Counted from the stretch's first letter, positions 3,100-13,921 are shown. The stretch is DNA of 13,921 bases from Candidatus Omnitrophota bacterium (GCA_049517335.1 JBEKSD010000024.1:1-13921); one strand, 5' to 3'. The notes: generated by a model from the letters alone, not told the origin. Made by a program: numbers and translations.

Positions 3100-5123
3100 T
3101 GGAAGATAAATTGGTTTCGGAATTTCTTTCTCTGGTGCAGGTTGATGATTTTGAAGGTACCTATAGTAAAGATATCGCAGCTGGCAGGTATTTCGGGATG
3201 CCCTTGGAGGCGATAATTTCTGCCGAGAGAAGGCTACTTTCGCCAGAGCAAAATGGCATTGCCTATTTCTCCATGGAATACGGCCTTGCCACAAGTTTTT
3301 ATAATAAATTTGTAACCAGCCGCCCTATTGACCCAAGCAACAAACTCCCTGAAAACGAAGTCTTTTCAAACTTCCGGCTCGCCGATTATTTCTTTGACCT
3401 GCACATAGACAATATAATTGACCTGCCCATTTACAGTGGCGGCTTGGGGGTTTTGGCCGGCGACACGATGAAGACTATGGCTGATTATAAGCTTCCTGCT
3501 GCCGGGTTAGGCATGCTTTGGCACTCCGGTTATTTCAGGCAGAAATTCTGGTTTAAATACGGGCAGGCCCCGGAGAAGATGGAGTGGGACCCGCGCACCT
3601 ACCCCGGCCTCATACCGTTAAAAAACAAAGTAAAAATTTCTTTGAAATTTGGAGATATATGGCTTAAATTGTGGAAATATTACGTGTATAGCTATAAGCA
3701 TGATTATGCCGTTCCCCTGATATTGCTTGATACTGACACTGAGCCTAATGACGCTAAGGTAAGGGAGCTTACCGACCAGCTTTACAGGGCGGATGATAAA
3801 TGGTTTAAGATATTACAGAGGGTAATCCTTGGTTTCGGAGGCATTAACGCCTTGAAAGAGCTGGGTTATAATATTGATAAATTCCATCTTAATGAGGGGC
3901 ATGCCGTATTTGCTTTTATTGAAAAAGCGCGCGGACTTTCTGCACAAGCAAAGGATGCATTAAAAGACAGGTTCGTTTATACCTGCCATACTCCGGTAGC
4001 AGCAGGGCACGACAGGTTTTCTATTTATGATCTGGGAAAGGTTTTGAAGGATGAAGATATGGCTGTAATTGAAGAGTCCGGCAGGGAGAATGACGGAATA
4101 ATTAACCTCACCCTGCTGGCCATGAATATCTCTTCCTCAACTAACGCGGTCTCAAAAAACCATCAGAAAGTAATGCATTTGCAATTCCCCGGCTATAAAG
4201 AGCGCATAAAATACGTGACAAACGGGGTTCACCCGTATACCTGGATTTCACGTAGTTTTATGGAATTATTTGAGAAATATGCTTACCTGTTCAAAGACGT
4301 TAAATCTAATCCCATGATTTTGTCTAAGGTCGGTGAATTAAGGGAGAATGTTGATTTCCGCAAAGAACTCTGGAAGGCACATCAGGTTAACAAAGCGAAT
4401 CTTTGCGGCTTCTTAAAAGATTGGAAACTTGACAAGGATATCTTTACGGTATGCTGGGCAAGAAGGATAGCCGCTTATAAAAGGCCGAGCCTTATACTGC
4501 ACGATGTTAAAAGACTCCTTGGTATTGCCAAAAAAACAGGCCCGGTGCAGGTAATACTGGCGGGCAAGGCGCATCCAAATGACAATCTGGGCGGCACTTA
4601 TGTAAATGAAATACTGGATACCATTGACTCACTGTCGGAGTTTTACGATGCCTTAAAAATCATTGCGCTTGAAAATTACGATATCTCTATGGCCAAGGTG
4701 CTTACCTGCGGCGTGGACGTCTGGCTGAATAATCCTCTTCCTCCGTTTGAAGCCTCAGGCACAAGCGGAATGAAAGCAATATTAAACGGAGTCCTTCAGG
4801 TGAGCACTCTTGACGGTTGGGTTGCCGAGGCTGCGGATAGAAATATAGGCAGGATTTTTGGCTACAGGAATAAAGAAGGAGAAGTGGGGAGCGAGTCTGA
4901 ATTACATCTTGATGACGATGCTGATAAACTCTACGGTGTTTTAGAAGAAATAGTAGGATTGTATTACCAGACTAACCAACAGGGCAAGCTTGACCCCGCT
5001 TCCAGCTGGATAGATATGATGATAGATTGTGTCAATACCGGCTCTTACTTTAATACTTACAGGATGTTTGATGAATATAAACACAATATCTGGGCTATAA
5101 ACAAAACCAAGCTGCGAGTTTAA
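3099..5123 (+). CDS. glgP: Alpha-glucan (glycogen/maltodextrin) phosphorylase, GT35, 674 aa
   Basis: Motifs 'YFSMEYGL', 'LPIYSGGLGVLAGD', 'HLNEGH', 'YTCHTP..AGHDRF', 'TNGVH', 'ARR..YKR', 'AGKAHP' and 'DVWLNNP', plus the PLP-lysine motif EASGTSGMK (K at 4773-4775). True start is ATG 3099 (TAATG overlap with the znuB stop, SD AGGGGGA at 3083-3089), not 2937. Confidence 0.95.
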   Translation: MEDKLVSEFLSLVQVDDFEGTYSKDIAAGRYFGMPLEAIISAERRLLSPEQNGIAYFSMEYGLATSFYNKFVTSRPIDPSNKLPENEVFSNFRLADYFFDLHIDNIIDLPIYSGGLGVLAGDTMKTMADYKLPAAGLGMLWHSGYFRQKFWFKYGQAPEKMEWDPRTYPGLIPLKNKVKISLKFGDIWLKLWKYYVYSYKHDYAVPLILLDTDTEPNDAKVRELTDQLYRADDKWFKILQRVILGFGGINALKELGYNIDKFHLNEGHAVFAFIEKARGLSAQAKDALKDRFVYTCHTPVAAGHDRFSIYDLGKVLKDEDMAVIEESGRENDGIINLTLLAMNISSSTNAVSKNHQKVMHLQFPGYKERIKYVTNGVHPYTWISRSFMELFEKYAYLFKDVKSNPMILSKVGELRENVDFRKELWKAHQVNKANLCGFLKDWKLDKDIFTVCWARRIAAYKRPSLILHDVKRLLGIAKKTGPVQVILAGKAHPNDNLGGTYVNEILDTIDSLSEFYDALKIIALENYDISMAKVLTCGVDVWLNNPLPPFEASGTSGMKAILNGVLQVSTLDGWVAEAADRNIGRIFGYRNKEGEVGSESELHLDDDADKLYGVLEEIVGLYYQTNQQGKLDPASSWIDMMIDCVNTGSYFNTYRMFDEYKHNIWAINKTKLRV

Positions 5124-7216: not shown

Positions 7217-7245
7217 TCACCCGCCAAAGCCGGAACCATTGCTAT

Positions 7246-7319
7246 GCGCCCATAGCTCAACTGGATAGAGCATCAGCCTACGGAGCTGGTTGTTGGAGGT
7301 TCGATTCCTCCTGGGCGCA
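7246..7319 (+). tRNA. tRNA-Arg(ACG), CCA not encoded
   Basis: Acceptor GCGCCCA/TGGGCGC, D-arm GCTC-AACTGGATA-GAGC, anticodon arm TCAGC-CTACGGA-GCTGG (ACG at 7280-7282), T-arm GGAGG-TTCGATT-CCTCC, discriminator A. Confidence 0.97.
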
Positions 7320-7339
7320 TATTTAGTTAACAGGTTAGG

Positions 7340-7815: not shown

Positions 7816-7907
7816 GGAGAGGTGGCTGAGTGGTCGAAAGCAACTCACTGCTAATGAGTTGACCCGGGAAACTGGGTCCCTGGGTTCAAATCCCAGCCTC
7901 TCCGCCA
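7816..7907 (+). tRNA. tRNA-Ser(GCT), CCA encoded
   Basis: Acceptor GGAGAGG/CCTCTCC, anticodon arm ACTCA-CTGCTAA-TGAGT (GCT at 7850-7852), long variable arm GACCCGG-GAAA-CTGGGTC, T-arm CTGGG-TTCAAAT-CCCAG, then G73 and CCA at 7905-7907. Confidence 0.97.
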
Positions 7908-7999
7908 TTGCAACCAATTTGAACCATTGGTTTGTTCGCGGGTCCCAGGGTTCTATTGTACATGGGTCCGATGGAATTTTTCGACGAGCTAATTTAATT

Positions 8000-9574
8000 A
8001 TGTCCTACACAGTATTTGCCCTCAAGTGGCGGCCGAGGAATTTTGATGAAATAGTAGGCCAGGCCCACATCGTTAATAACTTAAAAAGCGCTATTACTAA
8101 TGACCGCCTTGCCCACGCGTATCTTTTTGCCGGGCCGCGGGGGGTGGGAAAAACTTCCACGGCAAGGATTTTAGCTAAGGCGCTTAATTGTAAAGAAGGC
8201 CCAACGCCTAACCCATGTGGTAAATGCGTAGCGTGTTTGGATATTACTCAGGGAAAAGCACTTGATGTGATTGAAATTGACGGCGCTTCCAACCGCGGCA
8301 TTGAAGAAATTCGCACTTTACGCGAAAGCGTGAAATTCGCGCCAACCTCCGGAAAATTCAAAGTTTATATAATTGATGAGGTGCACCAGATTACTGCTGA
8401 CGGTTTTAACGCCTTGCTTAAGACGCTGGAAGAGCCGCCTCCTTATGTAAAATTCATTTTTGCCACAACCCACCCCAACAAAGTCATGCCGACCATTCTT
8501 TCAAGGTGCCAGCGGCTTGATTTTCGCAGGATCTCGGTAATGGAGATGATAGGCCAGCTTGAGAAGATTGCGGAGGATGAAAAAATAAAAGTAGATAAAG
8601 AAGTTTTGTTTGCCATAGCCAAAAGCTCAGACGGGGCTTTAAGGGATGCAGAGTCTATTTTAGACCAGCTTTTTTCTTTTACTAAGGAAAAGGTTTCGCT
8701 AAAAGACGTCGTATCTATTTTGGGGTTGGTTGAACAGGAAGCCCTCTTTGAGTTGACTGATACAATAATCCGTAAAGATCCTAAAGCCGCATTGGAAATA
8801 TTGGATCGTATAATTGATGACGGAAAAGATATAGGTGTTTTCTTAAGTAGTTTAATTGAACATTTCCGTAACCTGATGATTGCGAAAGTTTCTAAAGGAG
8901 ACCCGAAACTGATAGACCTTCCCCTTGAGATATGCGAGCGCCTCCTTGAACAGGCCCACTCTATGGGGCTCAATGAGATTTTTAGCTCGTTTAATACTTT
9001 AGTCGCTACGCAAGAGATGACTAAACGGCTGGATTCTTTACGCATACCGCTTGAAATATGCTTAGTGAGGCTCGCGTATGATAAGAATAACGCAGGCTCC
9101 GGGGGGAGCGGCAAGCCGGATATTATGCATACCGCAGGGCGCCATGAAAAAGAAAAAAAGGCCGATGAACAGGTAAAACAACAGGAGGTTAGAACCGAGC
9201 CTTCAGCGCAGCAGTATAAACCACTATCAATTACATTGGATAATATTAAAGCTGCCTGGCAGAATCTAGTTGAGAATTTAGGCCGCGTAAAGATGTCGGT
9301 AGCGACTTATTTGAATGAAGGCGAACCTTTGAAATTAGACGGGAATACTTTGGTTATATCTTTTCCGAAAAACTATTCTCTCCATAAAGAATCGCTTGAG
9401 AAAAAAGAGATTAAAATGTTGATTGAAAAAACGATATCTGAAATATTCAATGAGAATATACTGGTAAATTTTATTCTGGCTGCTCAGACAAGGCAGACTG
9501 ATGACGCGAGGGAGCACCCGATAGTCAAATCAGCCATGAATATGTTCGGTGCGAGGTTAGTTAAAGAAGAATAA
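8000..9574 (+). CDS. dnaX: DNA polymerase III subunit gamma/tau, 524 aa
   Basis: Motifs 'ALKWRP..F.EIVGQ', Walker A GPRGVGKT, Zn cluster C..(PCGKC..C), 'EIDGASN', Walker B IIDEVH, 'LLKTLEEPP', SRC and 'G.LRDA'. True start is ATG 8000; the ORF-track start at 7859 lies inside tRNA-Ser. Confidence 0.97.
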   Translation: MSYTVFALKWRPRNFDEIVGQAHIVNNLKSAITNDRLAHAYLFAGPRGVGKTSTARILAKALNCKEGPTPNPCGKCVACLDITQGKALDVIEIDGASNRGIEEIRTLRESVKFAPTSGKFKVYIIDEVHQITADGFNALLKTLEEPPPYVKFIFATTHPNKVMPTILSRCQRLDFRRISVMEMIGQLEKIAEDEKIKVDKEVLFAIAKSSDGALRDAESILDQLFSFTKEKVSLKDVVSILGLVEQEALFELTDTIIRKDPKAALEILDRIIDDGKDIGVFLSSLIEHFRNLMIAKVSKGDPKLIDLPLEICERLLEQAHSMGLNEIFSSFNTLVATQEMTKRLDSLRIPLEICLVRLAYDKNNAGSGGSGKPDIMHTAGRHEKEKKADEQVKQQEVRTEPSAQQYKPLSITLDNIKAAWQNLVENLGRVKMSVATYLNEGEPLKLDGNTLVISFPKNYSLHKESLEKKEIKMLIEKTISEIFNENILVNFILAAQTRQTDDAREHPIVKSAMNMFGARLVKEE

Positions 9575-10173
9575 TGGCTTCTTATACCGATTCAATAGAA
9601 AAATTAATTGAAGGTTTGATAAAGCTTCCCGGCATAGGCCGCAGGAGCGCCGAGCGTATTGTAAATTACATTTTAAGTACTCCGGCAGATGAGATAAAAT
9701 CATTATCCTCGGCTATTCAAAAGGTAAAGGAGAGTGTGCGTTTCTGTAGATTGTGCAATAACTTAAGCGAAGAAGATTTATGCAAGATTTGTCAGGACGC
9801 GCGTAGGCAGAAGAATATGATTTGTATTGTGGAAAAGCCCGGTGACGTTACTGCAATTGAAAAATCTGGGACATTTAACGGCGTTTACCATGTTTTGCTC
9901 GGTTCTATATCGCCATTGGAAGGCAGGGGCCCGGCTGATTTAAAGATAGATGGGCTCATTAACAGGATAAAACAGGATAATATCAAGGAAGTGATTATCG
10001 CGACTGATGCCGATACCGAGGGAGAAACCACGGCAATGTACCTGGCTAAGGTGCTTAGGCCTCTAGGCGCGCATTTAAGCCGCATAGGTTTGGGTTTGCC
10101 TGTCGGCTCTAACCTTGAGTATGCCGACGCGACCACTCTTTCTAAAGCCTTAGAATCCCGCCGCGCAGTTTAA
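9574..10173 (+). CDS. recR: Recombination mediator RecR
   Basis: HhH 'LPGIGRRSA', C4 zinc finger (CRLC...CKIC), Toprim 'IVEKP', 'YHVL.G.ISPLEG', 'TEGETTA' and 'GLPVG..LEYAD'. TAATG overlap with the dnaX stop. Confidence 0.97.
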   Translation: MASYTDSIEKLIEGLIKLPGIGRRSAERIVNYILSTPADEIKSLSSAIQKVKESVRFCRLCNNLSEEDLCKICQDARRQKNMICIVEKPGDVTAIEKSGTFNGVYHVLLGSISPLEGRGPADLKIDGLINRIKQDNIKEVIIATDADTEGETTAMYLAKVLRPLGAHLSRIGLGLPVGSNLEYADATTLSKALESRRAV

Positions 10174-10177
10174 TTTT

Positions 10178-12148
10178 ATGATTACGATAACAAACCTCTC
10201 CAAGAATTACGGTCGGAAAATCCTTTTTGAGAATATTACTTTAAGCATTAATCGGGGGGAAAAAATCGGTCTGATCGGACCGAATGGTTCGGGTAAATCC
10301 ACGCTTTTTTCCCTGTTTCTCGGCGAAACCGAGCCTTCGTCGGGAGAGGTACGCGTCAATAAAAATGTCCACATCGGTTACCTTCCGCAGGAATCAAGCT
10401 TTAACTCGGAAAACACGGTCCTTTCGGAATTAACTGAAGGCGATGAGAGGATTTTGCGCCTTAAAAAAGAGAAGGCTGGGCTTGAAGACAATAATCAGGC
10501 AGGCTCTTATCGCTATGGAGAGGTTTTACATGAGCTTGAGTCATTAGGTTTTTTTGAGCTTGAACATAAGGCCAAAAAAATACTGATGGGCCTTGGTTTT
10601 AAGGAGAAAGACTTCAGCCGGTTGATTAGCCGTTTGAGCGGCGGCTGGCAGATGCGCGCGCTTTTGGCGAAACTGCTTACCTATCGTTATGACCTGCTTT
10701 TACTGGATGAGCCTACAAATTACCTGGATCTAAATGCCGCCTTATGGCTTAAAGATTATCTCGCCGGATTTAACGGCACGTTTATCATGATTTCACATGA
10801 TAGGGCGTTTTTAACAGATGTAACTAACTACACTCTAATTTTAGAAAACGGCTCAATTACAAAAGTGCGCGGCAACTACGAACATTACGAACAGATAAAG
10901 AGAGAGAAGCGCAAATTCCTGATTAAACAGTTAGTTGAGCAGGAAAAAAAGAAAAAACAGCTGCAGGAGTTTGTGGCGCGTTTCCATGCCCAACCGAATA
11001 AGGCCGCTTCAGTGCGCGCCAAGCGCAGGGTCTTGGAAAGGATGGAAGAAGAAGCGGTAACCGTCCCGCCTGAGCCAAGAGAAAGTATCGGCCAGATTCA
11101 TTTTCCCGTTCCCCGGCGCAGCGGCCACAGAGTGACTACTCTTAAAGGTATTTCAAAGTCATACGGCGATATTAAAGTTTATCAGGGGTTAGATTTTGAA
11201 ATTACACAAGGAGAGAAAGCTGTCTTGGCAGGAGAAAACGGCGCGGGGAAATCCACGCTCTTAAAAATGCTGGCCGGGGCAGTTGATATTGATTCAGGCA
11301 GCCGGATTATCGGCCATAATGTAGACATAGGTTATTTTTCCCAGACACGCACGGATGTCCTGAATGTTGAAAATACCGTCTTACAGGAAGCTTATCTGGC
11401 TGCACCCGGGTATATGCCGGAAGAAACAATAAGGGCGATATTGGGAGCATTTTTATTTACCGGGGATGATGCGGATAAGAAGGTAAAAGTTTTGTCAGGC
11501 GGGGAAAAGAGCCGTTTGATTTTAGCCAAACTTTTAATTAATCCCCCTAATTTCTTACTGCTTGATGAACCGACCACGCATTTGGACGTAGATGCCGTTG
11601 AGGCATTGGTGCGGGCGTTGAATGAATATACGGGGACCCTCATCTTTATAAGCCATGATATTTATTTTGTGCGTTCCGTAGCCAACGTTGTTTTTGAAGT
11701 AAAAGACGGATGGATACGTAAATTCGTAGGAGAGTTTAATTATTATTTAGAGAAAAAAGACCAAGAGGAAGTGATTATTAAAGCTGAACCGAAAGTCATA
11801 CCGCATAAAACTAAACACGAAGAAGAAAAGGAAAAGGCGAAATTGGAAGAAAAAAAGATTAAAGAGGAAGAAAAGGAACGCAAGGCGCATAACGCCGCTC
11901 TGCGCGCCGAAATAACAAAGTTAGAGAAGAAAAAAGAAAAGCTTCAGCTTGAGAGCTATGCCAAAGCCCGTTCGCTTTCCAATCCGCGTATTTTCCGCGA
12001 CGAAGAGACCGCTAAGGCGTACGGCCGCCGCATCAAAGAAATTGAAAAACTTACCTCCGGGATAGATTCGGAAATAAAAAATTGGAAGTGCAGATTTTAT
12101 AAGACTAATAAAGAAAGGTTTTATTTTTTCAAAAGTTTATTTATATAG
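10178..12148 (+). CDS. ABC-F family ATPase (YheS/YdiF/Uup-like translation factor); 3' end probably frameshifted, with alternative stop at 12100-12102
   Basis: Two NBDs (GPNGSGKS/LSGGW/LLLDEPTN/SHD and GENGAGKS/LSGGE/LLLDEPTT/SHD), a helical inter-ABC linker, no TM segments and a charged C-terminal coiled coil. Confidence 0.93.
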   Translation: MITITNLSKNYGRKILFENITLSINRGEKIGLIGPNGSGKSTLFSLFLGETEPSSGEVRVNKNVHIGYLPQESSFNSENTVLSELTEGDERILRLKKEKAGLEDNNQAGSYRYGEVLHELESLGFFELEHKAKKILMGLGFKEKDFSRLISRLSGGWQMRALLAKLLTYRYDLLLLDEPTNYLDLNAALWLKDYLAGFNGTFIMISHDRAFLTDVTNYTLILENGSITKVRGNYEHYEQIKREKRKFLIKQLVEQEKKKKQLQEFVARFHAQPNKAASVRAKRRVLERMEEEAVTVPPEPRESIGQIHFPVPRRSGHRVTTLKGISKSYGDIKVYQGLDFEITQGEKAVLAGENGAGKSTLLKMLAGAVDIDSGSRIIGHNVDIGYFSQTRTDVLNVENTVLQEAYLAAPGYMPEETIRAILGAFLFTGDDADKKVKVLSGGEKSRLILAKLLINPPNFLLLDEPTTHLDVDAVEALVRALNEYTGTLIFISHDIYFVRSVANVVFEVKDGWIRKFVGEFNYYLEKKDQEEVIIKAEPKVIPHKTKHEEEKEKAKLEEKKIKEEEKERKAHNAALRAEITKLEKKKEKLQLESYAKARSLSNPRIFRDEETAKAYGRRIKEIEKLTSGIDSEIKNWKCRFYKTNKERFYFFKSLFI

Positions 12149-12456
12149 TTTTGTATCAAAGATTTCTGCTCGTCATTTAAATCCAAAAATTCTATTCTCG
12201 TAATATGTGCCTGAGAACTAGATTCCGAACAATCTATTATCTTTCCGTAAAATTCCAGGCATTCTAATGGTTTAAGAGGAATTCTTACTCGAAGTTTTAA
12301 CTTATCTCCGGGAAAAAATTTCATTCTGGTAATAATCTTTGTGCCTGTTTCGCTAAAATCTTTTATCGGAGAAATATCCCAGATTATATTGTCTTTGCTG
12401 TATTGTATAAGTAAGGTTCCTTTTATCCGAATTGACCTTCTTCTTTCATTCTCCAT
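12121..12456 (-). CDS. Stand-alone PilZ domain protein (putative c-di-GMP receptor)
   Basis: N-terminal RxxxR (ERRRSIRI) and D/NxSxxG (DFSETG) motifs, and a C-terminal 'IEF..L.......I..YI' helix. Confidence 0.88.
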   Translation of the reverse strand: MENERRRSIRIKGTLLIQYSKDNIIWDISPIKDFSETGTKIITRMKFFPGDKLKLRVRIPLKPLECLEFYGKIIDCSESSSQAHITRIEFLDLNDEQKSLIQNYINKLLKK

Positions 12457-12584
12457 TAAAATATAGCTAATACTTATTTTTTCAGCCAGTTATTTTTTAA
12501 TCCCTTACGCTAAGCATAAAATAACTTATCTAGCAAAGAGGATGGCTGGAAGTATCAAGGAGTGTGTGTTTCTTAATGTAACTT

Positions 12585-12872
12585 TTAATATGCTTCATCG
12601 GCGAAAACTTCAATACGCTTTATATCCTTGAATACTTCGTCGTAATGAATCCCCTCGATATACTTCTCGAAGATTTTGGTCATTCCGGTAGGGAGGTTAT
12701 TTATAACTAAAACCGTATTTACCATAGGAATACCCTTGATGAATATAATTATGCGTGTAGTAACAGCGGTATAATTTTTACCGGACCTATTAGCAATTTC
12801 TCCTTTTACGACTATCTGTCCGGTATACTTTGCCTTTTCTAGAACGATATGGGAATATTCTAGATTCAGCAT
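12585..12872 (-). CDS. FxLYD/DUF3426-like Ig-fold hypothetical protein
   Basis: Pattern 'VKGEI.N.SGK.Y...' and 'INNL..G.TK.F'. SD AGGGGT 7 nt upstream and its own promoter. The family call is tentative. Confidence 0.6.
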   Translation of the reverse strand: MLNLEYSHIVLEKAKYTGQIVVKGEIANRSGKNYTAVTTRIIIFIKGIPMVNTVLVINNLPTGMTKIFEKYIEGIHYDEVFKDIKRIEVFADEAY

Positions 12873-12890
12873 CTTTCTTACCCCTATTTA

Positions 12891-12920
12891 ATTATATCAC
12901 TTGTATTTAAAAATTGTAAA
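12891..12920 (-). promoter_or_regulatory. Sigma70-type promoter for the 12872 gene (and possibly the PilZ gene)
   Basis: Minus strand TTTACA (12920-12915), an 18-nt spacer ending in TGA, then TATAAT (12896-12891); AT-rich upstream tract. Confidence 0.65.
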
Positions 12921-13191
12921 TAAAAACTAAATTCAAATTCTGAAGAATAAACTTTCTTATTCTTTATCTTAATCTTATTCTGATTTCTTATGCCTCAAAA
13001 GACAATTTTCCAGCACAGCAGAGGTACGCTTTTCCTGATTAACACGAAAAGCGCCCTGATTATCTCGAAGATCTCAAGGGTCACCGCTTAGAAATAAGGT
13101 AGTAAGCAACTCCATAGGTCATTTTGGTTTAAAAACTGTAGATTAGCGGGAAAGAAAGAAGGGGGAAAACTGTATTTAGAACTGGCTATGG

Positions 13192-13389
13192 TTATTTAAA
13201 TATGTGTGAAAAATGCAATCTAAAGAAATTCATGCTGTGTTCCAATTTTAATTCTAAAAGGCTGAGCTTGCTTATTTTGTTAAATTCACCGGCATTTAAC
13301 CAGATGCCTTTGTAGTTTTTACAATAATTAATTGTCACATTGTTATTCTTGGGATTCCATGTAACAATCTGTTTTAAACTAAATGCCAC
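13192..13389 (-). CDS. Small hypothetical protein, 65 aa
   Basis: GTG start with AAGGAG SD 8 nt upstream and a possible TGaTAAGAT extended -10 further upstream. No family recognised. Confidence 0.55.
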   Translation of the reverse strand: MAFSLKQIVTWNPKNNNVTINYCKNYKGIWLNAGEFNKISKLSLLELKLEHSMNFFRLHFSHIFK

Positions 13390-13474
13390 TTTAAAGTCTC
13401 CTTAATAAATATCTTATCATAAAAATAAAAACTCTCCGTAAGTATTTTACTTAAAAAAGAGCTAAAAATACAAA

Positions 13475-13489
13475 CTCCCCATCGTGGAC
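13475..13489 (-). mobile_element. Putative att core: displaced tRNA 3'-end fragment (tRNA-Asn-like)
   Basis: The minus strand GT-CCACG-ATGGGGA-G has the register of T-loop end, 5-nt T-stem strand, 7-nt acceptor strand and G73. There is no upstream tRNA body, and it is a GC-rich spot in AT-rich DNA. Confidence 0.45.
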
Positions 13490-13548
13490 GAATTTAGAAC
13501 TTTTCTTATCTTGTATAAAGAAGGAAAGTCCTTTAAGAAACCCGTGTT

Positions 13549-13562
13549 AATTTAGCTAAATT
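13549..13562. repeat. Perfect 14-bp palindrome AATTTAGCTAAATT
   Basis: Self-complementary sequence just downstream of the ankyrin gene stop. The function is unknown. Confidence 0.6.
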
Positions 13563-13577
13563 TATACTAATTTGTTA

Positions 13578-13921
13578 CTATTGAGTGTGTTTAGAACTTT
13601 TTTTATTTGGGCGAGACATACTACTCTTTACTGTGGAGGGTGGTTCATTTATAGCTCCAGCTTGCCTAAGTAATTCAACTATATCACTGTGGTTGCGTAA
13701 TTCGGCTTTCGATAAGGCTGTTTCGCCAATATCTGATTTTATATTTACATCTGCGCCCTTGGAAAGAAGCAGTTTAACTATTTCTTTTTTGTTAGTCTCT
13801 GCAGTAGACATCAAGGCTGTTTCACCGTTATTCGCTTTGGCGTTTACATCTGCGCCTTTAGAAAGAAGCAGTTCTACTATTTCTTTGTTGCCATTAGTTG
13901 CAGCAAATATCAAAGCTGTTT
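13578..13921 (-). CDS. Ankyrin-repeat protein, C-terminal part (5'-truncated by the window edge)
   Basis: 33-aa repeats 'TAL..A...N.KEIV.LLLSKGADVN.K...GETAL', a capping 'IVELLRQAGA' and a low-complexity tail. The frame stays open to the window end (TALIFAA...). Confidence 0.95.
   Translation of the reverse strand, partial: TALIFAATNGNKEIVELLLSKGADVNAKANNGETALMSTAETNKKEIVKLLLSKGADVNIKSDIGETALSKAELRNHSDIVELLRQAGAINEPPSTVKSSMSRPNKKSSKHTQ
13744..13890. repeat. 99-nt-period DNA repeat underlying the ankyrin repeats
   Basis: TTTACATCTGCGCCYTTRGAAAGAAGCAGTT..ACTATTTCTTT starts at 13744 and again at 13843. Confidence 0.85.

Follow-up and report, generated by a model that had tools for sequence, protein, structure and literature searches.

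Genes for large serine recombinases (LSRs) that cross their own attachment (att) site are already known in kind, and so is the accretion of CIMEs, the att-bounded segments that lack an integrase. In the consulted part of McMurdie et al. 2011 (PMC3146451), the ssrA islands of Dehalococcoides carry the DsiB gene at the island edge, and the 3' end of this gene always overlaps the att repeat. Genes of the dsiB type meet their stop codon only once they have run on into the adjacent island or into ssrA, the antisense small-RNA gene. The same part of that paper (PMC3146451) proposes that full function of the recombinase gene may need the circle, or a neighbouring island from which the gene obtains its 3' fragment; this version of the idea was floated in 2011 without evidence. 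Islands without integration modules, in tandem downstream of the target gene, are read there as cis-mobilizable elements (PMC3146451).

Parts of this design recur elsewhere. In mycobacteriophage BPs and its relatives, whose immunity depends on integration, attP lies inside the repressor gene. According to the consulted portion of PMC4557955, the viral form of the repressor has an ssrA-like degradation tag and the prophage form does not, and the integrase carries a C-terminal proteolysis signal too. CIMEs and tandem accretion at tRNA genes are reviewed in PMC5704250, where composite excision from a distal attL is described as possible. As that review has it, serine-recombinase IMEs insert within dispensable genes and disrupt them; the portion consulted has no account of an integrase ORF that crosses its site. 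The word "tRNA" has no occurrence in the consulted portion of Durrant et al. 2022 (PMC10083194). In a literature search with subscription journals outside its scope, we found no papers on serine recombinases that end in antisense tRNA.

SSV1-type archaeal integrases are tyrosine recombinases whose attP lies within the gene and whose target is a tRNA. Integrons hold mostly single-gene, co-oriented cassettes with a repeated site of ~100 nt and a fixed entry point, and their tyrosine recombinase IntI uses folded single-stranded attC/attI. Serine integrases are valued for the control of their direction by a separate factor only: canonical LSRs recombine attP with attB, and they need a directionality factor for attL x attR.

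We analysed a stretch of 13,921 bp (the window), which is the whole of contig C24 of a Candidatus Omnitrophota genome (G000; 1.45 Mb in 31 contigs). Positions 13419-13605 are very probably an attL-type double junction of an element family that LSRs insert at tRNA-Asn, and the start-less ORF within it is, with the same high probability, a spare integrase 3' end. We base this on the anatomy of the junction, the continuity of the reading frame, fused forms elsewhere, a constraint on 26 nt of DNA, and a coding signature in the remainder of the tail family. The likeness to Dehalococcoides lies in the edge LSR that overlaps att, the tandem islands, and the integrase-less units (PMC3146451). There, however, the target is the tmRNA (ssrA) rather than tRNA-Asn, and DsiB is CcrB-like and paired with a small recombinase, DsiA, unlike in the tRNA-Asn system (PMC3146451). 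Also, the Dehalococcoides islands are tens of kb long and carry rdhA genes, whereas our cassettes are often single genes; and the overlapping C-terminal part of DsiB is divergent, with no conserved tail in the consulted text (PMC3146451), whereas we find tail families with a coding signature. What is new here is the tRNA-Asn-targeting clade and its breadth, the conserved tail families, the natural fused forms, degron-like endings in phages, and arrays of single-gene cassettes with a terminator arm at every internal junction.

The start-less ORF, KYKLPIVDEFRTFLILYKEGKSFKKPVLI followed by a stop, spans 13466-13555 on the + strand. It is read in the frame AAA TAC AAA CTC CCC ATC GTG GAC, between a TAA at 13463-13465 and a TAG at 13553-13555, just as an earlier sequence-only reading of this DNA had reported. 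The ORF lacks ATG; GTG (13484, internal) and one TTG are the only codons of start type in it, and on reading the sequence we saw no Shine-Dalgarno motif upstream of either. Because the tail has no start codon, its translation would require fusion to an upstream ORF. Homologous tails are found on another contig of the same genome (C17), in 39 metagenome loci, and in the FR-type C-termini of some integrases.

The sequence-only reading took the minus strand of 13475-13489 (GTCCACGATGGGGAG) for the 3' end of a tRNA such as tRNA-Asn. The single tRNA-Asn of this genome, at C17 c[12845-12920], ends in GTCCTCGAGGGGGAG plus CCA, and the 15-mer is identical to it at 13 of 15 positions. But no tRNA of the genome carries the exact 15-mer, and ARAGORN finds no tRNA at 13475-13489 (the only tRNAs it reports in the window are Arg at 7245-7320 and Ser at 7816-7907). 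The identity to tRNA-Asn consists of the core CTCCCC and scattered bases only. The exact 15-mer does occur twice in the 1.45 Mb, at C24:13475 and C17:7467, where it is part of a longer, 31-nt twin at C17:7463-7493 (30/31 identical; blastn-short, E = 1.6e-8), so the likeness of the window site is real and above chance. The sole difference, GAA/GAG, is silent in the tail frame. With a repeat profile (nhmmer), strong copies were confined to C17 and C24. The proposed att-type junction at 13475 stands, with this twin, as part of an element family that targets tRNA-Asn.

What does not stand is the idea of a displaced tRNA 3' fragment. Beyond CTCCCC, 2 of 9 bases mismatch tRNA-Asn, and these mismatches are common to C17:7467, C24:13475, and a genome of the same family (G127). 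In an orthologous element, L004, 5 of the 9 bases after the core differ from the tRNA of its own host, which implies that the tRNA-like stretch belongs to the P' arm of the element instead of being displaced tRNA. By this comparison of sequences, the bases to the right of CTCCCC are element-derived mimicry of the tRNA.

The hybrid-site test for the attL of a serine integrase found the same three parts in the window copy as in the attL on C17. The first part is a left, B-type arm with a weak terminator-like hairpin and U-run (13419-13462, minus strand). In the fold of 13405-13480 (minus strand), a stem-loop is followed by UUUUUAUUUUU, with a z-score of -1.33, which is not significant; the homologous arms on C17 fold strongly (z = -3.4, -3.1, and -2.3). 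The arm ends in a spacer at 13463-13474 on the + strand (GCTAAAAATACAAA, versus GCTAAGAAGTCAAA on C17), which includes the in-frame TAA; counted from the aligned rows, 12 of the 16 bases left of the core are identical between the window and C17. This spacer type is also present in G127 and in further C17 copies. The second part is the shared core CTCCCC (13475-13480, + strand), which is antisense to positions 69-73 of tRNA-Asn (GGGGAG). The third is the element-derived P' half-site ATCGTGGACGAATTTAGAAC (13481-13500, + strand); together, core and half-site are identical to C17:7467-7492 at 25 of 26 positions.

A second, degenerate junction follows at 13546-13605 (+ strand). After ~45 nt, the tail meets the module GTTAATTTAGCTAAATTTATACTAATTTG, and a decayed core and half-site (TTACTATTGAGTGTGTTTAGAAC) come after it at 13575-13605. 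This second junction matches C17:3294-3266 (minus strand) at 28 of 29 positions, and the whole double junction aligns to the reverse complement of C17:3400-3185. An ankyrin-repeat gene, of which the window holds the 3' part (13578-13921, minus strand, cut at the contig end; Pfam Ank, E = 1.6e-22), ends over the decayed copy. Farther to the left is an older, degenerate tail copy at 13108-13200 on the + strand (LHRSFWFKNCRLAGKKEGGKLYLELAMVI, then a stop), with a weak nhmmer match at 13128-13200 (E = 0.46). It abuts the stop of a minus-strand ORF, as the C17 copies do. A cassette ORF of 65 aa lies at 13192-13389 (minus strand; its match to Zn_ribbon_TFIIB, E = 1.3e-4, is weak and below the Pfam cut-off), and a 95-aa ORF call at 12585-12872 (minus strand) has no family match in Pfam.

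The same genome encodes a candidate partner for the site. C17:11384-12886 (+ strand) encodes 500 aa with the domains of an LSR (Pfam Resolvase, 4.4e-26; Recombinase, 2.3e-18; Zn_ribbon_recom, 2.2e-10) and matches the PHROG 95 integrase at 6.8e-84. An AlphaFold2 model of a homologue, P0057, places long helices (336-440) between zinc-ribbon parts, in line with the coiled-coil insert of an LSR. The N-terminus of the C17 protein is MKSIIYARVSSKEQ, and Y6, A7, R8, V9, S10, and S11 are nearly invariant in a 60-sequence alignment; the catalytic nucleophile is presumably among these N-terminal serines. The C-terminus is WLPLEDSNLGPGG (in a longer view, ...SSKDWLPLEDSNLGPGG), then a stop. The last 13 codons are antisense to tRNA-Asn, from the CCA to the anticodon loop, and the gene reads TGG CTC CCC CTC GAG GAC across the tRNA end. 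A + strand recombinase that runs into a minus-strand tRNA-Asn in the CTC-CCC frame had been predicted, and this gene is one.

The far junction of this element is the 31-nt twin at C17:7463-7493, 5.4 kb to the left of the end of the recombinase gene. At C17:7467, a strong minus-strand terminator hairpin (z = -3.4) is followed by the spacer CTAAGAAGTCAAA, the core CTCCCC, ATCGTGGACGAGTTTAGAAC..., and a start-less frame (LPIVDEFRTTLLAIPQEFLYHELLESSI, then a stop). The right arm of this attL is homologous to the element end in L004, and the left arm resembles a terminator, which fits a position downstream of a tRNA. The two C17 junctions have only CTCCCC in common: directly to the left, one has AAA and the other TGG, and they diverge again from the seventh base. 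Because attL and attR share nothing else, the exchange must fall inside those six bases, and we infer that strand exchange takes place within CTCCCC. Recombination there would fuse the recombinase ORF in frame to the tail in the window or to the one at C17:7467, as the predicted in-frame gain of the tail requires. The layout recurs in the orthologous elements L004 and L003 from one MAG, which encode integrases 83% and 88% identical to the one on C17 and carry a homologous tail (WLPFVNEFRTALPEIPQEFLCHELLEMAI, then a stop) with homologous DNA beyond it.

The 5.4-kb element (C17 7467-12886) also holds a terminase-small-subunit-like HTH gene (9869-10249; PHROG 2538, E = 9.7e-13) and a SpoVG-like gene (8589-8909). 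Neither Pfam nor PHROGs recognised capsid or replication genes in it. Its gene content suggests a phage satellite or a minimal mobilizable element.

These observations suggest how the spare 3' end could be used. Large serine recombinases would place elements at the 3' end of tRNA-Asn, each leaving a junction in which the 6-bp core CTCCCC separates a B-type left arm (a hairpin like a tRNA terminator, then the spacer) from a P' right arm. The junction in the window sits close to the distal end of a composite island, and C17 carries the end of that island nearest the tRNA. On that contig, the gene of the resident recombinase runs through this core and has its last codons in antisense tRNA. For a gene of this kind, the start-less ORF would be an alternative 3' end, encoded by P'. 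It would become translatable only once attL x attR recombination, or a tandem arrangement, sets it behind the gene; fused to the tail in the window, the protein would have ~514 aa in place of 500, and with the tail at C17:7467 a predicted ~516 aa. In SSV1-type archaeal integrases, integration splits the gene into two large parts, whereas here only the last 25-30 codons would be exchanged.

Several observations count against a working site in the window. Its hairpin is weak (see above), and no contig joins its tail to an integrase. The tail leaves the family consensus after codon 12, because the second junction follows. The resident enzyme might still be able to use this copy, which we consider slightly doubtful, and the copy may be a relic. 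Separately, we aligned Logan contigs from four peat or wetland runs to C17:1-14000, and the joints found were between repeat copies only; in these contigs, which drop rare forms and so give no measure of absence, no joint of ~5.4 kb was present, either skipping or going back. By a joint from 6910 to 5476 with 34 extra letters (runs X1, X2, and X4), at least one further tail variant lies outside the assembly, so the population or the genome holds more array copies than the MAG does. Scored to place the central dinucleotide, the dyad symmetry of the in-silico attP and attB was at best 10-12/24, versus a shuffled mean of 11.75. By eye, we also considered an offset of a GGGCT motif between the P and B arms and rejected it as inconsistent across loci.

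We then compared related integrases. Of 80 integrase ORF ends in genome contigs, 52 are at an opposite-strand tRNA (28 at Asn, 11 at Gln, and the rest at others); five more ORFs run off a contig. Among the 120 nearest homologues of the C17 integrase, 55 have DSN-type tails that are antisense to a tRNA, 38 stop within ~4 residues of a conserved W, and 7 have FR-type tails in frame (such as P0050, which ends in ...DFIESFRNWCLSAEAQIMLQELPFLVA). In 6 others, the same DNA motif is read in another frame (PIGRVQNF, then a stop); there are also 9 other endings and 5 without an anchor. The endings "LP..DSN" and "LP..D.FRT", which the sequence-only reading had named for recombinases convergent on tRNAs, are both represented in this set. 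A chromosomal junction of integrase and tail is found at L067, which has a 273-nt, 90% identical repeat 9 kb away.

The six homologues that read another frame show that the FRT peptide is not kept universally, which counts against our reading of the frame. Because they keep the motif nonetheless, the first 26 nt (core plus half-site) are constrained as DNA. For the remainder of the tail, we examined 15 distinct 27-codon tails, in which the pattern used for selection fixes only codons 1-10 and the stop. Across codons 11-27, the diversity at the first, second, and third codon positions is 6.68, 5.50, and 8.90. The ratio of the third to the second position (1.62) was reached by 6 of 5000 column permutations, and the median dN/dS is 0.365 (78 of 105 pairs were usable). 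An earlier test with 10 tails was weak (dN/dS of 0.32, versus 0.40 for one antisense frame). The motif F-R-[NT]-[FW] is kept with differing arginine codons, AGA and CGC. This codon signal fits translation of the tail family in the + strand tail frame.

Could the conserved unit be an RNA element instead? On the minus strand, a cassette ORF is followed by the antisense tail, GGGGAG, the spacer, and the terminator-like hairpin with its U-run, so it could be a 3'-UTR/terminator module or a tRNA-like 3' end of the cassette genes, with an accidental + frame. The C17 copies do fold at z-scores of -2.3 to -3.4. But we saw no tRNA-like T-arm pairing when reading the sequence, ARAGORN was negative, the codon-phase signal sits in the + strand frame, and the tail family occurs in frame fused to integrases. 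We consider this explanation very unlikely. An independent small gene, which would make a peptide of ~23 aa from GTG 13484, is more improbable still. Many copies have GTG or ATG as codon 4 of the tail (LPIV.., LPVM..), but the pattern with which we searched allowed only T as the middle base there and so favours V, M, L, or I, and in other family members the codon is TAT, ATC, or a Leu codon. Also, there is no Shine-Dalgarno motif upstream, and conservation starts at the core, upstream of codon 4.

We return to the spare integrase 3' end and its island. In G127, DnaX, RecR, and ABC-F are 66-78% identical to those of window 7859-12148. Directly after ABC-F come tRNA-Asn, a two-ORF cassette, and an identical core and half-site with the tail LPIVDEFRTFIASGEIEKLRQELALAA and a stop. 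Beyond the tail, seven genes without homologues in G000 (one has a single weak match) lead into genes that are colinear with C17:13224-24000. In G000, the DNA after the ABC-F gene (12149-13921, where the island's distal end runs off the contig) begins with a PilZ-domain gene (12121-12456, minus strand; Pfam PilZ, E = 2.9e-11), and C17 holds the tRNA end. No k-mer or BLAST overlap continues C24 among the other contigs. Given the synteny with G127, the right end of the window and C17:1-12844 are two parts of one island, which extends from ABC-F to the gene at C17:13224 and has at least 1.8 + 12.8 kb (at least 14.6 kb). So, the tRNA and recombinase that had been expected to the right of the window are there, across a contig gap. 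The site had also been described as the left end of one element that extends to the right with the ankyrin gene as cargo. The island does extend to the right, but it is a composite of several cassettes and the 5.4-kb element, and the ankyrin gene is one cassette gene beside the second, degenerate junction.

The tRNA-Asn is at opposite ends of the island, and in opposite orientation, in G000 (window 12149-13921 plus C17 1-13300) and G127 (L128/L129). By this comparison, the segment with the tRNA and the island is inverted as a whole in one lineage.

Three sites in G000 match the resident core and half-site (C17:5409, C17:7467, and C24:13475), and there is only one close integrase. Integrase-less segments bounded by resident-type att sites are what a cis-mobilizable array consists of, and these putatively mobile segments fit that description. 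They resemble CIMEs in that att sites bound them, they have no integrase, and an integrase-bearing element belongs to the same tandem array at the target's 3' end (PMC5704250). The CIMEs in the consulted portion of PMC5704250, however, belong to ICEs and IMEs with tyrosine recombinases, while here the recombinase is a serine recombinase.

To see how widespread the tails are, we searched for the pattern CTCCCCNTNNTNNACGARTTTAGAAC. It has 41 matches, all start-less, at 39 loci in metagenome contigs, and 0 matches in IMG/VR. The motif is present in 3 of 400 other Omnitrophota genomes searched. All 41 matches lie behind an A-run and a terminator hairpin, often with TGG next. At three loci, tRNA-Asn follows on the right-hand side at a distance of 0.7-1.8 kb. 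Among the products of the cassettes, which are small, are membrane proteins, a HEPN/MNT pair, and an ATPase pair. No LSR was found in the flanks of any of the 39 loci (up to 8 kb, and many loci are short contigs), and two of the three Omnitrophota genomes, G127 and G350, have the site but encode nothing closer to the integrase than proteins of 33% and 31% identity; both observations count against the tail as an integrase 3' end.

These loci raise the alternative that the hairpin-core-tail unit of ~130-150 nt is a cassette recombination site, attC-like in its role, and that a serine recombinase working in trans captures single-gene cassettes in succession at tRNA-Asn. With every cassette, a new terminator, and hence a fresh attB-like site, would arrive at the tRNA, and the site in the window would be a cassette boundary, not the end of an integrase-bearing element. 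Five + strand tail copies on C17 (4975-7554) have one small minus-strand ORF between each, and at 14 of the 39 metagenome loci at least two copies share a strand, with 0.4-3.6 kb between them. At L120, the order is tail, HEPN/MNT pair, junction, ATPase pair, hairpin, and tRNA-Asn, and L087, L119, L104, and L085 are similar. Every internal junction carries a hairpin arm, and the cassette ORFs share the strand of the tRNA. Simple accretion of integrase-bearing elements leaves it unexplained that the internal junctions all carry this arm and not an integrase 3' end, which counts against our preferred reading. The lack of an LSR beside any of the 39 loci also favours capture in trans, but the integrase may lie just outside the many short contigs. 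Furthermore, no circular cassette or empty site was seen in the Logan contigs, and a coding signature in the tail is expected if the tail serves an integrase, not if the units are purely DNA sites. Under the canonical rules for LSRs, we know of no reaction partner for a circle that carries an attL-like site. On balance, we think that cassette capture of this kind is unlikely.

The likeness to integrons is in the arrays of co-oriented, mostly single-gene cassettes at a fixed point, spaced by a repeated site of ~100 nt and with toxin-antitoxin pairs among the cassettes. But IntI is absent from the locus, where the sole recombinase is a serine recombinase, and by eye we found no GTTRRRY/RYYYAAC pair in the repeats. 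The R''/R' consensus is not seen here, nor is a tRNA anchor of that kind. The array at L120 (5350-7233 of a metagenome contig) adjoins a tRNA-Asn that matches the one of G000 almost perfectly in its 3' part. Its HEPN/MNT-like pair, and its 193-aa P-loop ATPase with a 53-aa partner, look like toxin-antitoxin modules, as named from reading the translations.

If the tail is an alternative integrase 3' end, as we prefer, it might also alter the behaviour of the enzyme, which we consider doubtful. In the AlphaFold2 model of P0057, a natural fused form (60-sequence alignment; mean pLDDT of 86.3), the zinc-ribbon fold ends near residue 476 and the tail (481-513) is a helix with pLDDT of ~50. The model predicts that the tail is an appendage past the canonical fold, with no confident docking. 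The lack of confident docking and the homologues with another frame are hints against a putative switch; the coding signature and the phage endings are hints for one. In IMG/VR, 50 ORF ends of the integrase clade are readable: 12 at tRNAs (mostly at contig ends), 5 left open by the end of a contig, and 33 non-tRNA. The 33 represent 31 distinct tails, which come from related phages and of which a few at contig edges are probably undetected tRNA antisense. Among these, 19 of 31 end in [AVLCIW]A (such as ..LDLAA, ..KLVA, ..EKAA, and ..LVLA), as compared to 1 of 12 tRNA-state tails and 39 of 688 ORFs of at least 100 aa in the same loci. By analogy, the hydrophobic-Ala ends of integrases from unintegrated phages look like a degradation tag. 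Of 34 distinct metagenome tails in the family to which the tail in the window belongs, 6 have Ala as the last residue and 10 close with three hydrophobic residues; the tail in the window ends in PVLI. As in BPs, attP lies in coding sequence and integration would alter the C-terminus of a protein (PMC4557955). In BPs, the repressor is split, the integrase is a tyrosine integrase, and the effect was demonstrated by experiment (PMC4557955), whereas here the serine integrase itself would be split.

Tentatively, and with more doubt than confidence, we propose a broader picture. A clade of tRNA-targeting LSRs, spread over many phyla and phages, would keep attP in its own 3' end. The free (circular or viral) form would have a tail of 25-35 residues, often with a hydrophobic-Ala end, and the integrated form a tRNA-antisense tail, and the swap would set the stability or directionality of the integrase as a state sensor. 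In Omnitrophota and neighbours, the same sites would bound single-gene cassettes. The tRNA-Asn locus would be a serine-recombinase counterpart of the integron, in which alternative attL sites give alternative tails and cargo. If this is true, a clade that rewrites its own C-terminus at each state change would be controlled at a second level, built into the enzyme. Small genomes would also have a new way to capture genes, through the arrays of tiny cassettes next to tRNA-Asn in uncultivated bacteria. For annotation, such sites would account for ragged integrase gene ends and for start-less conserved frames beside tRNA islands.

A few other features of this genome are worth describing. The half-sites on C17 are of two types. 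Those with ..GTGGACGAGTTTAGAAC (IVDEFRTF) are at C17 5409 and 7467 and at window 13475, and those with ..TATGACGCATTTCGCAAC (LYDAFRNW) are at C17 4975, 6040, and 6880. Because only the IVDEFRTF type matches the resident junction, the LYDAFRNW type may belong to an integrase specificity that is missing from G000. Reverse-strand tails (3190-3145, 3386-3281, and 4898-4816) flank a + strand TPR gene (3394-4731) in an inverted segment at C17 3145-4950, which could be the product of recombination between inverted sites. A lone partial half-site at C21:16577-16605 adjoins a LemA-like gene. A second, distant serine recombinase (C7:21353-22450, 29% identical) lies ~0.3 kb from tRNA-Glu c[23260-23337] and may mark another tRNA-linked element. 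Finally, the longest dnaX ORF in the window (from TTG 7859) overlaps the same-strand tRNA-Ser (7816-7907) at 7859-7907. The G127 homologue aligns from window 8000, and the true start of dnaX is probably downstream of 7859.
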